Assembly (NCBI GenBank): GCA_024679065.1
Contig: JAGIQG010000020.1
Span: 33,852,001-33,916,000, forward strand
Direction: 5' to 3'
Source of the DNA: Sphyrna mokarran
Lineage: Eukaryota
DNA: 64,000 nucleotides
Shown here: piece after piece, positions 3,212-51,869 of the stretch
Layout of the letters: each line of letters starts with the position of its first letter
How positions within the stretch are numbered: position 1 is the first letter of the stretch
Notes under the pieces: generated by a model
Databases searched by the model: none
Seen by the model: only the letters and a program-made list of their open reading frames with translations
Told to the model about the DNA's origin: nothing
Translations under genes and position numbers: made by a program

Positions 3212-3507
3212 TTTTTTTTTCTTTTGTTTTTATTCCAATTCAATCCAATCAAGTCCAATTCAGTTGAGACACTCCCAATCCAAGCTGACAAGACAGGGCT
3301 CTCATCTTCTGTCTTAGGCTTGATCTACATGATTGAAGTAGGTATAGCTCCTCCTCCAAGGCTTGATCTTATTTGCATCTTAGTCAAAAGACTAAATGCT
3401 GCTTTTAAAAATTGCTTCAAATGAAGCTGAAACGTGACCTAATGACTTCAACCAAGCACAGCATGTTGAAACTACACTTGATCTTAGCCAAAAGGCCGAG
3501 AAGTGAC
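3212..3507 (-). mobile_element. U2 snRNA-headed short retroelement, copy 1
   Basis: 3471-3507 is the reverse complement of U2 nt 1-37 (35/37 match). It is followed by a ~260-bp non-U2 body, AATAAA and an A-rich tail. The body is shared with 7721-8015. Confidence 0.85.
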
Positions 3508-4902
3508 AATTATTACCAGTAGCACAAAGAATGATTAAAACCTGGAATGTTAGTTAAAGGAAATACTGGTTTCTAAGTCTTCTGCTCTCCCCCTAAGATC
3601 ATGCTGATCAGTTTTGTTGCCTAATTATGGGATGGAAGTATCACAAGATTATGAAATCAAAGTCCATGATTTTCCAAATTGTAACATTTCTACACGTATG
3701 GTTCATCACACAAAAGCTGAATTAGACATGCATTTTTTTAAACCATCAACTCTGGTGCAGTTAAATTGGATGGTAGAGGTACTAACTCTGATATTATGGG
3801 TGGATTATAGACTTTTTTTGTAAGCATCAGTTAGATTGACTGAATGGCATTCCTCATCTTTACTTAAGTTTCCAATCTTCTTAATTGGAGAAAAAGTTAC
3901 TATCTACAAATCTATAAAACATTTGTTTTTAAAAACTAGATTTTAAAAGCTAGTTTTCAATGTCTATATAGTTAGTGTTTATTTATTGATTTATTCTATT
4001 ACTGCAATTTTAATTGAATGCCAGGTAGCTATTTAAGCTCTTGTTCTGTTAGGAAAAGTCATACAATTTGACTGTACCAGAGTTGATGGTTTAAAAAAGA
4101 TGCAGTGTCTAATTCAGCTTTCATGTCATGAACCATACATGCAGAAGGGTAGAGGGTTTTAATGCAGTAGGGCAGCGAGGTCAGTGCAGGCTTGGAGGAT
4201 TGAAGGGCCTGTTCCTGTGCTATAATTTTCTTTGTTCTTTGTTTGTAAGAATGTTATAGTCTGAAAAGTTATGGACTTTGATTTCTTGTGATATTTCCAT
4301 CCCATAATTAGGCAGTAAGAACTGATCAGCATGATTTTAAGGGGAGAAGCAGAAAACTTAGAAACCAGTTTTTCCTTTAACCAAGATGAATCCTTGTGAC
4401 CCTTCTCTGCTCAGTAGACTGGAGTCATAACTGGCAAAACCTCTTTCCTCAGCCAAAAGACATGACGATACAGAGTTTCTAACCGCTACATGACCTTCCA
4501 ACTAAAAACACAGGGTAATCCATGTTACAGCAACCCCAACAGCAGTTAGTTTAAATCTCTGGGCACCAAATAGAGGAATGCTTGTTTGTCTGTAATTGTT
4601 TTCAATTTTCTCTTCCCTGCCCTCTCTCCAAATTAACTTCCCACAATTACACTCTTTGTTATACAATTGGACATTTCATTGATTGCAATCAGTGGTATAG
4701 TGGGAAATTTTGAGGTGCAGGAGCTTTAAGAACATGCATTGAGCATATCATTTCTAAATGTACTATCACATTATTTTCCTTAATATTAATCATTTCAGGT
4801 CCCATAAATCAGTAACCTGTGCTTTTAAGTGAAAAATATTAGTGTTGGTAAGTATAGGCATTTTATTTTGAATCATTAGTCTTTGGCGTTTAAGCAGTGT
4901 TT

Positions 4903-7720: not shown

Positions 7721-8015
7721 TTTTTTAAAATTTTTATTCCAATTCAATCAAGTCCAATTCGGAATTGAGGCATTCTAGATCCAAGCTGACAAGACAGGAT
7801 TCTCACCTCCTGTCTTGGGCTTGATCTATATGATCCAAGCAGATTGGAATAGGCATTGCTCCTCCTCAAACGTGATCTCATTTGCATCTTAGTCAAAGGG
7901 CCAAGATACCACTTTTAAAAATTGCTTCAAATGAAGCTAAAATGTAACTAATGAATTCAACCAAATGCAGCATGTTGATATACAGTTGAGCTTAGCCAAA
8001 AGGCTGGCAGGCTAT
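7721..8015 (-). mobile_element. U2 snRNA-headed short retroelement, copy 2
   Basis: Collinear with 3212-3507 over its whole length. U2 head is degenerate (tacagttgagcttagccaaaaggc on +); AATAAA and A tail present. Confidence 0.8.
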
Positions 8016-45030: not shown

Positions 45031-47574
45031 TAGTAGCACTAAATGATTTGTTCATTTGGAGATTTGATGTCAACATCATGGGCTGAATGGGGTCCTTCTG
45101 CACAATAACAATTCTGTGACTCTGTAATGTATTTTTACAGGATATTTGTTTCCATGTGTACAGTTAATTTTTGTGAAGCAAGAATAACAATTCATGGCTC
45201 TAGTGTGGACATCAGACATATGAATTAGGGAAAGGATCACCATTAGACTATACTTTTAGTCAGACTAAGAAATGGGATATGCATGATGGCTACTAGGATT
45301 TTATCTGAAGGACTTGGACAGTGTGGATAATGAAGGAAACTGGGCTGGAAGTGGAGTTAAAAGTCTTATGGAAATTTTTATTTGGGTAAATGGGGAGAAA
45401 TTAAAATGGATAAACACATATGTTGTAAGTGACAAGTTGATTTTCAAGCGAAATGATGACCAATGAGGCATTAACTGTGGCTAAATTGGAATTATCTGGT
45501 TAATTAATTAAATTATGAGATACCCACACAAGTAATGCACTGAGAGAAAAATACTTTGCATAAAAAACCTAAAACTGTCCTAACTAATAGCAGGAAAGCA
45601 AAAAAGAAATCACACCAGTATATCACACTAGTCAGGTCAAACAAATTCAGGCTGACTTAAAGTAAGTTACATTGATAGGTGTAAGTTACACTGATAGTTC
45701 TAAGTTATGTTACATTGATATGTAGGACACGAATGTATCTGAAACATTTCGCAAAATTATTTCACTGTGACTAACTAATCAGTCATACTATTGTGTCATC
45801 TGAGCCCTTTGCCTCTCTTAAAGGGGTCTGCTTAGAATGAAGAAATCTTGCATACAAAGAAGACCTGTCAGTCAGTGTCACTGAAATGCCCTAAAGGATG
45901 TCAGGTGGTAGTTTAGGCACAGCAAACATGTTCACAGATTGCTTGAAAACAAATATCCAGGTGAGTCAAAGCCACCTATCATTTATTGATTTGTTCTGTA
46001 GCATGCTCTAAACATAAAGGGCATATCACTAAGTCTGGTAAATGATGTAACTGACAATCTTAGTGTGTCGATAATGATATAACTATCAGTGCAACAGCAG
46101 ATATTGCAGGTATAAATTTCATTCTCTGTATTGACACGGAGATAGCAGCCACCGACACAGACCTGAAAAATCAGGATTATAATAGATCACCATCTACAAG
46201 TAGCTTCATCTGTCTGCTTAAACATGGATCATAACAGATGGTGTTGGGTGTTCAGGAGATATAAAGCAATTCCAGTTGCTGCAGGCAACTGAAAAGGCTG
46301 GAACTCACAACTGAAGGTTTATTACCATGTTCATGCCATCTGGTATGGAGGATATACGAAGGGGGGTAGGCTGAAGAGCAGGGCCTCCAGGGTGGCGATC
46401 TCAGGGCTGCTACCAGGGCCGAGTAATAGCAGAGCCAGGAGAAATGAGATCCTACAGCAGAATGCGTGGCTGAAGGACTGGTGTAGGGCAGAGGGTTTCA
46501 TATTTGTGGATAACTGGGAAGTGAAAGAAGGGCACCTGTATAGAAGGGACGCGGAACACTTAAATGGGAAGGGTGTGAATATCTTAGCTGGGATGTTAGC
46601 TGGAGTGTTTCGGCAGGATTTAAACTAATATGGAGGGGGCGAGGGGCTGAAACCGATAGCTTGGTAGAGAGCAAGATGGGAGATAGAGTAAGCTTGGACG
46701 AGAAGAAATACACCGGGGAGAAGGAGGTTCCGAGTGGGCTTGGAGGTCTGGAGTGTGTCTGTTTCAATGCAAGGAGCGTAACAGGAAAAACGGATGAACT
46801 TAGGGCCTTAATGTTTGCGAGGAACTTGGATGTGGTTGCGGTGATGGAGACGTGGTTAAAGGAAGGGGAGCAGTGGCAACTGAACATTCCTGGGTATAAG
46901 TGTTTCAGGCGTGACAGAGGAAGGTCCAGAAGAGGTGGAGGAGTAGCGTTGTTAGTTAAGGAGAGCATCACGGCGGTGCAGAGGGAGGACAATACAGAGG
47001 AATTAGGAGCAGAGTCGCTGCGGGTGGAGTTGAGGAATAGAAAGGGGGCAATTACTATGCTAGGGGTGTATTATAGGCCACCCAACAGCCCGCGGGTAGT
47101 TGAAGAAGGCATATGTAAAGATATTTTGGATAGGTGCAGAAAGAACAGAGTCGTTATAGTGGGAGATTTTAATCTCCCTAGGGTGGATTGGAAAAGTACC
47201 CAGAGCTGGGGGTTTGGATGGGCAGGAATTTGTAAAATGTGCACTGGAAGGATCATTGGAGCAGTATGTGGCTAGCCCGACTAGAGAAGGGGCTATATTG
47301 GATTTAGTTCTGAGTAATGAGCCAGGGCAGGTTGTTGATGTTGTAGTGGGGGAACATGTGGCTAACAGTGACCACAATTCTGTCTACTTTAGGATACAGA
47401 TGGAAAAGGATGCTTGTTACCCTAGGGGCAGGGTGCTGAATCGGGGGAAGGCTAAGTACGGTCGGATTAGGCAGGAACTTATGGAAACTGATTGGGAACG
47501 GTTGTTTGAGGGTAAGTCCATGCGAGGCATGTGGGACTCTTTCAAGGGAATACTGAAAACGTTGCAAGATAGAT

Positions 47575-48472
47575 ATAGAACATAGAACACTACAGCACAA
47601 ATAGGACCTTCGGCCCATGAGTTGCGCCGATCACATCTATACCTACCAAGCCGTAGACCTATCTATAACCCCCTATCCCATTAGTTCCCATATACTCATC
47701 CAGAAGTCTTTTAAAAGACCCCAGCGAGTTTGCCTCTACCACCACCGACGGCAGCCGATTCCATTCACTCATCAGTCTCTGAGAGAAAAACATACCCCTA
47801 ACATCCCCTCTGTATTTGCTTCCCTACACCTTAAATCTGTGTCCTCTCATAGCGACCATTTCAGTCCGGGGAAATAGCCTCTGAGAATCCCCCCTGTCTA
47901 TTCCTCTCAACATTTTTTAAACCTCTATCAGGTCGCCTCTCAACCTGTGTCTCTCCAGGGAGAAGAGTCCCAGCTCCCTCAACCTATCTTCATAAGGCAT
48001 GCCTCCCAATCCAGGCAGCATCCTTGTAAATCTCCTCTGCACTCTTTCAATAGCTTCCACATCCTTCCTATAGTGAGGCGACTAGAACTGCGCACAGTAC
48101 TCCAAGTGGGGTCTGACAAGGGTCTTATAAAGCTGCATCATTACCTCCTGACTCCTAAACTCAATCCCTCGATTAATGAAGGCCAGTACACCATACGCCT
48201 TCTTGACCACATCCTCCACCTGCGAGGCCGATTTAAGAGTCCTATGGACCCAGATCCCAAGATCCTTCTGCTCTACAACACAGCTAAGACTCCTACCCTT
48301 GATATTGTACTCTTTCATCCCATTATTCTTGCCAAAATGGACCACTACACATTTATCCGCGTTGAAGTCCATCTGCCACTTCTCCAACCAGTCTTGCATC
48401 CTGTCTATGTCCCGCTGCAACTTTTGACATCCCTCCAGACCATCCACAACACCACCAGCCTTTGTATCGTCG
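47575..48472 (-). mobile_element. Nested antisense CR1 3' fragment (different subfamily)
   Basis: Runs from DDTKAGG through VRPHLEYCAQF to a (TTCTATG)n tail. Host ORF2 reads QDRY before the insertion and MPAKRK after it. Confidence 0.92.
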
Positions 48473-48701
48473 ATGCCAGCTAAGAGGAAAGATGGGAAAA
48501 GTAGGATTAGACGGCCGGGGATTACTAGCGATATTGAGGACTTGGTTAGGAAGAAAAGAGCGGCATATGATAGGTCAAAGCAGCTGGGAACGGAGACAGC
48601 GTTGGAGGAATATAGAGAGAGTAGGAGGGAGCTCAAACGGGGAGTTAGAAGGGCAAAAAGGGGGCATGAAATGATTTTGGCGGATAGGATTAAGGAAAAT
48701 C

Positions 48702-49237
48702 CAAAGAACAAAGAACAAAAGCAGCAGGGGAAACAGGCCCTTCAGCCCAACGAGCCCGCGCCGCCACCCCGATGTTCCCACCTCTACCCATGATCCCTGT
48801 CTATGTTTATAGATCTATGGATTAAAAACCAAATTTGAGACAATTTAGGGAGAGTTTGTTTTGCCAATTTGCCTAAGAGCACATCTTTGGGACGTGGGAG
48901 GAAACCAGAGCACCCGGAGAAAACCCACGCAAGCATGGGGAGAACGCGCAAACTCCTACAGACACAGGCCCAAATCCATGTATCTGTACAGCACAGCGAT
49001 AGTCACTGAGCTGTCGTGTTGCCCATCAAATGGTCCAGGTCAAGCGTACACTAACGACGTGAAGCACTAGGATACTCTCGGAAAAAAATCCAAGAGCAGC
49101 CCTCTCACGACCCATCGCGTGTATGCCCCTTTTTAGACAACAAGGTGGACCAAAGCACCTGTAGGATAAAAACAAGTACATCAATATCATCATCTATTTA
49201 CACACTTCCCAGGGACTCCCAAGGCTCATGATCCCTA
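48702..49237 (-). mobile_element. Nested antisense copy of the host family's own 3' UTR
   Basis: Reverse complement of 50969-51498. Host ORF2 reads KENP before the insertion and KAFYSYV after it. Confidence 0.92.
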
Positions 49238-51869
49238 AAGCTTTTTACTCCTATGTTAGGAATAAAAGGGTGGTTAGAGGAAAAATCGGACCTCTTAGGG
49301 ACAGAGGAGACGAACTGTGCTTAGAGCCCGAGGGAATGGCGGAGATCCTGAATGAATACTTTGCGTCGGTATTCACGAAGGAGAGGGGCTTGTTGACAGC
49401 TCCTGTCTCTGAGGGAGCTGTGGACCAGTTGAGGGAAATATCCATACCGAGGGAGGAAGTGTTAGAGCTTCTAGATAACATTAAAACTGATAAATCTCCG
49501 GGGCCTGATGGCATTTATCCCAGGCTGCTTAGGGAGGTGTGAGGTGAAATTGTTGGACCTCTGATGTAAATCTTTGTCTCTTCTTTGGACACAGGTGAGG
49601 TCCCAGAGGACTGGAGAATAGCTAATGTTGTACCGTTGTTTAAAAAGGGTAGTAGGGATAACCCTGGAAATTATAGACCGATGAGTTTGACATCAGTGTT
49701 AGGGAAGCTGTTGGAGGGGATTCTTAGAGAAAGGACGCAAAGGCACTTAGAGCTTTGCGATCTGATTATGGATATGCAGCATGGATTTGTTAAGGGGAGG
49801 TCATACCTTACAAATCTGGGAGAATTTTTTGAGGAGGTGACAAAAACGGTGGACGAAGGGCGAGCCGTTGATGTTGTTTATATGGATTGTAGTAAGGCGT
49901 TTGACAAAGTCCCTCATGGGAGGTTAGTTGAGAAGGTCAAGGCTAATGGGATACAAGGACGGGTAGCTAGATGGATAAGTTACTGGCTTAGTAATAGGAG
50001 AAAGAGAGTAATAGTGGAAGGGTGTTTTTCTAGCTGGAGGTTGGTCACTAGTGGTGTGCCGCAGGGCTCGTTACTGGGACCTCTTCTATTTGGAATACAT
50101 ATAAATGACTTGGAAGAGGGAGTAAGTGGAGTGATCAGCAAGTTTGCAGACGATACAAAGATTGCTGGACTTGCGGATAGTGAGGAACATTGTCAGGCGA
50201 TGCAGCAGGACATAGATAGGCTGGTAGCTTGGGCAGATAGATGGCAGATGGAATTCAATCCTGATAAATGTGAGGTGATGCATTTCGGGAGAAAGAATGT
50301 AGGGGGGAGGTAATATGATAAAGGGTAGACCTATTCAGAGTATAGAAACGCAGAGGGACCTTGGGGTGCAGGTGAACAAGTCTCAGAAGGTGGCAGAGCA
50401 AGTGGAGAAGATTGTGAAGAAATTATATAGTATGCTAGCCTTTATAGGAAGGGATATAGAGTACAAGAGCTGGCCTTTAATGTCGCAGTTGTATAAAACG
50501 TTCGTTAGACCTCATTTGGAATACTGTGTCCAGTTCTGGTCGCCTTACTACCGGAAGGACGTGGAGACTCTGGAGAGAGTGCAGAGGAGGTTTACCAGGA
50601 TGCTGCCTGGTAATGGAAGGTCTGAGTTATGAGGAGAGGTTAGGCAAATTGGGGCTGTTTTCCTTAGAAAGACGTAGACTTAGAGGAGATCTAATAGAGG
50701 TGTACAAGATTATGAAGGGTATAGATACAGTAAACAGGGTTAAGCTTTTTCTAGGATGATCTCGAATAGCACGAGGGGTCACGGGCTTAGGGTGAGGAGG
50801 GTAAGGTATAATTTGGATGCTGGGGGAGTTTTTTCACACAGAGGGTGGTGGGGGTATGGAATGTGCTGCCAAGTAAATTGGTGGAGGCAGGTACTCTGGA
50901 GTTATTTAAGAAATACTTAGATAGGCACATGAACAGAATGGGAATGGGTATGGAAAACTGATTTAAAATAGGGATCATGAGCCTTGGGAGTCCCGGGGAA
51001 GTGTGTACATAGATGATGATATTGATGTACTTGTTTTTATCCTACAGGTGCTTTGGTCTACCTTGTTGTCTAACAAGGCGCATACACGCGATGGGTCGTG
51101 AGAGGGCTGCTCTTAGATTTTTTTTCCAGAGTATCCTAGTGCTTCATGTCATTAGTGTACGCTTGACCTGGACCATTTGATGGGCAACACGACAGCTCAG
51201 TGACTATCGCTGTGCTGTGCATATACATGGATTTGGGCCTGTGTCTGTGGGAGTTTGCGCATTCTCCCCGTGCTTGTGTGGGTTTTCTCCGGGTGCTCCG
51301 GTTTTCTCCCACATCCCAAAGATGTGCTCTTAGGCTAATTGGAAAAACAAATTCTCCCTAAATTGTCTCAAATTTGGTTTTTAATCCATAGATCTATAAA
51401 CATAGACAGGGATCACAGGTAGAGGTGGGAACATCGGGGTGGCGGTGTGGGCTTGTTGGGCCGAAGGGCCTGTTTCCCATGCTGTTTTGTTCTTTGTTAT
51501 CACTGCCATACATGAGGCAGAAAATAGAAGAAAGATAGTCAATTTTGAAATTTTCTGCTTATGTAAGTTAATTAAAATACAAAAATGATTAAGCAAGGAC
51601 AGCTTGAAACAAATCCATTATAGAAAAAACTATAGAACAGAAAAAACACAAAACAAGTACAATATTTTGCACACACTCAATAAATGCCCCACAAATTGAC
51701 CGTCTGTGCCTATAAAATGCAAACCTATGACAATGGGACCAGAAATCACCAAACATATCCAGTTGTTCAGATGTTGCTGAACCTGCCCCATTGTACAAAT
51801 GAGTTGAATGTGAGACTAAGGCAAGATATATAATCAGACTGTAAATATTTAGTAAGAGATTATTTGTAC

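Follow-up and report, generated by a model that had tools for sequence, protein, structure and literature searches.

A SINE family of Sphyrna mokarran built mostly from U2 snRNA, probably copied by a Keno-like LINE and transcribed from copies lodged in U2 genes

The genome of Sphyrna mokarran contains a SINE family, here called family A, that begins with the 5' part of U2 snRNA and ends in an A tail. It was probably copied by a Keno-like LINE and transcribed from master copies lodged in U2 genes, a cycle that we infer from sequence comparisons. Two of its copies lie in the window, i.e., the whole 64-kb stretch of contig JAGIQG010000020.1 (assembly GCA_024679065.1) that was analysed (Table 1). 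In the proposed cycle, the LINE machinery would insert the SINE RNA at U2 nt 38, mobilisation proceeding through the A tail, and the upstream Pol II snRNA promoter of the interrupted gene would make an RNA beginning at U2 +1, so that the first 37-40 nt of the host gene would become the new head. Retrotransposition would then carry this headed RNA to sites that are mostly random; having no promoter there, the copies would be dead unless they landed in a U2 gene again, and repeated rounds would leave nested relic heads.

Table 1. Features of the two window copies and of related loci elsewhere in the genome.
Feature	Location	Strand	Remarks
Copy 1, SINE family A, main subfamily	window 3212..3507	-	near full length; 10 and 12 nt deleted internally
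Head of copy 1, U2 snRNA nt 1-40	window 3468..3507	-	37/40 against the genome's U2 gene
Fold-back arm of copy 1 (majority 44-72)	window 3436..3464	-	predicted pairing with head, U2 nt 11-39
Linker of copy 1, with T5 run	window 3400..3435	-	Rfam aligns U2 Sm-site region, match not significant
Relic second head of copy 1, U2 nt 4-27	window 3377..3399	-	degenerate here; majority 109-132 is 23/24 to U2
Diverged-U2 part of copy 1, homologous to older family B	window 3235..3369	-	two tandem hairpin units and 3' end
AATAAA (3234-3229) and A-rich tail of copy 1	window 3212..3234	-	
Copy 2, SINE family A	window 7721..8015	-	90% identical to majority where aligned; more decayed than copy 1
L073, family-A copy in a U2 gene	C949:17.390 Mb, 40 kb from the four-gene array		upstream promoter homology, U2 4-37, body, U2 40-191, downstream flank
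Family-B copies	L118-L147, e.g. G000:C938:17599104-17599233		~215 nt, A tail

The head of copy 1, read on the minus strand from position 3507, had been described in the first-pass annotation as matching U2 nt 1-37 at 35 of 37 positions, and the same 35/37 was obtained against the genome's own U2 gene. An Rfam scan of the window gave a single U2 match, over copy 1; this full-length match (46.5 bits) rests on the head, and copy 1 as an ordinary U2 pseudogene was rejected. Over aligned bases, copy 1 is 94.5% identical to the family-A majority sequence (313 nt, built from 31 aligned copies). Its AATAAA and A tail are present as annotated, and a target-site duplication was looked for at this copy and not found. 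Copy 2, annotated as repeating the same head, body and tail in unrelated flanks, is 80% identical to copy 1 over 283 nt and does lie in unrelated flanks, but its head is degenerate, a clean alignment starting only at about U2 nt 12. As had also been noted, neither window copy is followed by the U2 3' half. Local duplication, which the annotation had named as the alternative origin of the pair, is ruled out by the unrelated flanks and the thousands of dispersed copies.

Those copies bear out the suggestion of a genome-wide U2-headed family. With copy 1 as genome query, 3,404 first-look candidates were obtained; the 40 that were scored all matched, giving 41 matches on many contigs with 79-87% identity (self excepted). 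An internal family-A 20-mer had 894 exact genome matches, against 0 for a control, and was exact in 3 of the 10 incidentally fetched copies spanning it (one being the window copy), which leads to an estimate of ~3,000 copies. Moreover, 40 fixed 10-kb stretches (400 kb) held 1 family-A copy, corresponding to ~7,000, though the margin is very wide. Family A is a multicopy unit of several thousand decayed, dispersed copies. The 31 best matches average 94.2% identity to the majority, 60 distinct copies range from 77 to 96%, and the family is apparently old and inactive. Junctions are identical among the 31 aligned copies, which have an A-rich tail, and subfamilies exist. Clear target-site duplications were found for 2 of 30 copies, versus 0 of 300 mismatched controls. 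The flanks of 59 copies have no element in common besides U2 3' parts and LINE tails, and a transposon target preference was not seen in this comparison. Tandem family-A pairs were encountered at L014, L024, L228, L234, and G000:C805:39212406-39213013. That thousands of U2-like matches in this genome are transposon heads is in itself a warning.

Majority positions 1-40 are identical to nt 1-40 of the genome's U2 genes (40/40), and the ATC at 38-40 is kept in 22 of 31 aligned copies, placing the end of the family head at U2 nt 40. The annotation had the head stop inside the branch-point sequence, which we take to be U2 nt 33-38. This is correct for copy 1, which ends at nt 37 as do only the members of a minor subfamily, A2, but the head of the family passes beyond that sequence. 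The remainder of the element, annotated as a non-U2 body, in fact holds a second U2 piece (Table 1), an arm complementary to U2, and ~170 nt of diverged U2. For the arm, an ungapped pairing of majority 44-72 with U2 11-39 is predicted at 25 of 29 positions, 9 of them by G.U. As stable a fold was reached by 5 of 2000 shuffles of majority 41-108, and the whole RNA has a z of -4.8. Local alignment of majority 41-108 with antisense U2 was not significant (54/1000 shuffles), and the arm thus rests on the folding test; frequent variants at old CpG sites were not counted as evidence of covariation. Speculatively, the fold-back arm might make the head's U6-pairing and branch-point sequences inaccessible, at the positions that we assume for these regions within it. 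Comparison with sense U2, family B, and the LINE 5' UTR gave no significant origin for majority 41-108, nor a match for the 36-nt linker within it (73-108). A scan of family A for internal Pol III promoters by sequence pattern yielded three T4-5 runs, zero A-box matches, and two loose B-box matches.

The 3' two-thirds of family A is linked to U2 only transitively, since majority 133-300 matches the older family B (76/96, 0/1000 shuffles) and does not match U2 directly (536/1000 shuffles). A family-B profile likewise matches window positions 3329-3235 (E 9.8e-9) and 3395-3339 (E 5.5e-5). The two tandem hairpin units of this part correspond to majority 140-188 and 193-245, the internal duplicate being identical at 35 of 47 positions (0/1000 shuffles). 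Family B was first met through a chance match near a LINE and has 118 candidates, of which the 30 that were fetched are 86% identical to their own majority. It comprises an entire diverged U2, locally duplicated in places, followed by an A tail: it is identical to U2 41-191 at 101 of 124 positions (0/1000 shuffles), is colinear with U2 1-160, and is recognised by the Rfam U2 model in L126 (32.9 bits, E 0.004). Because majority 133-300 resembles family B and family B is diverged U2, most of the body that had been taken for non-U2 goes back to U2 indirectly. On these alignments, family A is built mostly from U2 snRNA sequence, of which ~170 nt descend via the older SINE. Double heads occur at L048 and L025. 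Among the 30 family-B copies, 2 carry a U1 5' piece, like SINEU-2, and 3 are preceded by LINE tails. A U6 snRNA copy (L130:1630-1736, minus strand; Rfam 80.7 bits) stands directly 5' of a family-B copy, and the two likely form a template-switch chimera.

Insertion at the Keno site, put in the annotation at about nt 37-38, is supported by nine loci at which the A tail of family A is joined to U2 from about nt 38-46 onward, and the junction of the head (nt 37-40) coincides with this 3' insertion junction and with the published 3' target of Keno (PMC6136364). The intact U2 genes form an array of four units (C949, 17.33-17.35 Mb). The surrounding region (G000:C949:17326000-17394000) has units of ~8 kb with broken units on its flanks, one of them 5'-deleted, one with the SINE, and one with a LINE 3' end. 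The annotation had also anticipated master copies with an upstream promoter and downstream U2. Such U2-embedded loci do exist, L073 being the most complete, but L073 is decayed: its identity to the majority is 84%, and another insertion interrupts its promoter. It is a member of subfamily A2 and not of the subfamily of the window copies. A search with the U2 promoter gave 8 matches, which fall in the array, at two further U2 genes, and at a locus on C557; it missed L073 and is therefore insensitive. The C557 locus has the U2 promoter, the head, and 15 nt of the body, followed by a LINE fragment, and is broken. No intact family-A master was found, both promoter-bearing loci (L073 and C557) being decayed.

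The location of some copies inside real U2 genes nevertheless makes borrowing of the U2 promoter likely. As to that part of the earlier proposal, the five diagnostic bases of L073 that lie outside the search query all recur in 4 dispersed promoterless copies, whereas 80 of 88 family-A copies reach neither A2 diagnostic threshold; L073 and these four copies support the borrowing, and the cycle as a whole is our reconstruction. With promoter plus head as the query, all 39 other matches start close to U2 +1, a few bases away at most, and none of them has the promoter; likewise 56 of the 88 family-A copies start within 6 nt of U2 +1. Eight dispersed promoterless copies run into U2 nt 38+, 3 of them reaching the 3' flank of the gene. 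Five of the eight have a non-CpG transversion at U2 nt 67, to A in 2 copies and to G in 3, and a transversion at nt 86 is shared by two of these five; neither change was present in 5 control U2 sequences without family A. The shared transversions suggest that read-through RNAs came from common interrupted genes, a modest signal from 8 copies. Direct insertion is seen at L048, where U2 6-47 is followed by a complete element and then by U2 38+, with a 10-bp duplication at the target. In one read-through copy (L050, G000:C113:68260000-68260600), a different repeat of ~150 bp has inserted directly behind the U2 head.

Eight matches were obtained for the pattern of an A tail followed by U2 38+, 5 of which are family A and 3 are LINE 3' ends (L082-L084, on U2 38-60). 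A fourth LINE 3' end, on U2 46-191, lies in the U2 cluster at C949:17.393 Mb. This LINE has 2,223 first-look candidates, is ~5.3 kb long, and encodes a CCHC ORF1, an AP endonuclease, an RT (RVT_1), and a zf-RVT; the AP endonuclease (PF03372) was detected with an E of 5.6e-6 in 1 of 4 LINE pieces and weakly in another. The ESM Atlas returned only generic RT clusters, and from the domain layout and target site we take it to belong to the Tx1 clade. Since the LINE identified at this U2 position encodes an AP endonuclease, Utopia, with its restriction-like endonuclease, is disfavoured as the partner. Among 12 aligned full-length 5' ends, 5 begin with U2 1-35/47/58; the other 7 have U2 about 33-50/54, in 3 cases together with a U1 piece that was confirmed against the genome's U1. 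An arm complementary to U2 11-31 is present in the 5' UTR of the LINE as well (1 to 68/500 shuffles across five copies). Full-length LINEs with U2 or U1+U2 heads were seen at L150, L155, L156, L159, L162-L165, and L167, some with target duplications of ~15 bp by eye. Of 36 sampled LINE 3' ends, none is followed by U2 38+, so targeting is weak and the LINE is not strictly U2-specific; 4 of the 36 have a same-orientation family-A copy within 100 bp after them, versus 1 copy in the 400-kb fixed-position sample. SINE and LINE have no 3' tail in common, and the partnership therefore rests on the shared site and on adjacency, from which family A was likely copied by this Keno-like Tx1 LINE.

The main rival to transcription from masters in U2 genes holds that the element acquired its U2 head on a single occasion, by a template switch onto U2 snRNA during reverse transcription as in Kojima's SINEU model, that the masters used unrelated upstream promoters, and that the U2-gene copies are dead-end insertions. 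Switching does happen in this genome, as the U1 and U6 pieces at the 5' ends of family B and the U1 pieces of the LINE show; L048 demonstrates that an already-headed RNA can enter U2, and the decay of both promoter-bearing loci also suits this explanation. We consider it unlikely, however, because the head ends exactly where the element inserts, the dispersed copies begin at U2 +1 with no 5' extension, and the read-through copies have U2 3' sequence and flank, in which changes are shared.

The origin proposed in the first-pass annotation, a non-autonomous Keno/Utopia derivative with a body from the LINE's own ends, has the same insertion site in its favour, as well as the U2-complementary arm in the LINE 5' UTR and the linker that matches no tested source. 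Against this, family-A body and tail have no significant similarity to six full-length U2-site LINE copies (best E 0.19), the body has none to five LINE 5' ends (34 to 449/500 shuffles), and the 3' two-thirds trace to U2. Such a derivation is very improbable and largely refuted for the LINE found here. Hardly credible, finally, is the idea that neither family is a self-propagating SINE and that both arose as processed pseudogenes from one or two host genes for variant U2. Family B is indeed colinear with U2, and promoter capture itself would make only gene-embedded copies active, but family A interrupts a U2 gene that is complete apart from it, and it has an A tail of its own, nested heads, subfamilies, and thousands of copies.

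A SINE made from a rearranged housekeeping RNA has a parallel in Alu/FAM, which derives from 7SL RNA and later became dimer-like. Alu has an internal Pol III promoter, unlike U2, the promoter of which lies upstream, so that dispersed family-A copies would be promoterless. Alu/FAM has been likened to SINEU-3 (PMC4494074), and family B resembles SINEU-3 in being essentially rearranged U2. According to the available sections of Kojima 2015 (PMC4494074), SINEU-1, -2, and -3 are reported only from crocodilians and target Mariner-N4_AMi, and their transcription was left as a question. As described there, they share with family A a U2 head, a poly-A tail, a length of <500 nt, and recurrent addition of U1/U2 pieces; both lack a tail common with the partner, and the Keno-related Tx1 partner of SINEU (Tx1-Mar) has U1/U2 heads, as does the probable partner of family A. 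Family A differs from that description in having no shared transposon flank in 59 copies, in its recurring targets (U2 nt 38 and LINE tails), and in having copies in promoter-bearing U2 genes. Given that the Mariner preference is not seen here and that the comparison covers the published description of SINEU, family A is filed as a SINEU-type variant and not as a member of SINEU-1/2/3.

Keno belongs to the Tx1 clade, has an AP endonuclease, and inserts at U2 nt 37/38, and the LINE described here resembles it in the same 3' junction in U2, the AP endonuclease, the RT, and the zf-RVT (PMC4640811 and PMC6136364, in the parts available). Unlike Keno, family A encodes nothing and is not LINE-derived, and SINE and LINE are mostly at non-U2 sites. 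The Repbase entry Keno-1_SSa masks U2 sequence, so a U2-bearing Keno may be known in Repbase (PMC6136364, in part). The nearest precedent for promoter borrowing is, by analogy, that of the R2 SIDEs and R2/R1 hybrid SIDEs, which are non-autonomous and depend on the transcription of the RNA gene in which they insert (Eickbush 2012, PMC3414825, abstract). SIDEs are composed of LINE ends, are freed by a ribozyme of their own, and reside in 28S genes, whereas family A is made of host RNA, the 5' part of which it retains as its head, and is dispersed genome-wide.

Transcription of snRNA-headed SINEs was still called undemonstrated in 2018 (PMC5786205, in part), and the portions available of PMC5786205, PMC4758252, PMC7245038, and PMC8143547 name no SINEU host besides crocodilians. 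A repeat survey of fish has a generic 'SINE/U' class, with a value of 0 for Callorhinchus milii in the accessible Table S5 (PMC6817897), and a search of part of the whale-shark supplements was without result. In the open literature that was searched, no snRNA-headed SINE from cartilaginous fish was found; Repbase or Dfam may contain this family.

Family A would extend SINEU-type elements to another vertebrate lineage, with promoter-bearing U2-gene copies, read-through copies, and nested heads as fossil intermediates for one answer to how they are transcribed. A broader reading is possible though distinctly more tentative: an snRNA-derived SINE lineage may home to U2 at the Keno site, recapture the promoter, and renew its head, the LINE doing likewise and both folding the head away from the spliceosome. 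If true, this would explain in general how SINEU elements come to be transcribed, by a solution that arose outside crocodilians, and the same search for U2-embedded copies can be applied directly in crocodilians.

Two other structures were observed in the window. Inverted arms of ~225 bp with 83-88% identity (3547-3772 and 4060-4387) lie 40 bp upstream of copy 1 and did not recur among the fetched loci. Positions 46300-51500 hold a decayed LINE, presumably of the CR1/L2 type, with endonuclease- and RT-like ORF pieces, in which 48707-49237 is repeated inverted at 50969-51498 (94%).
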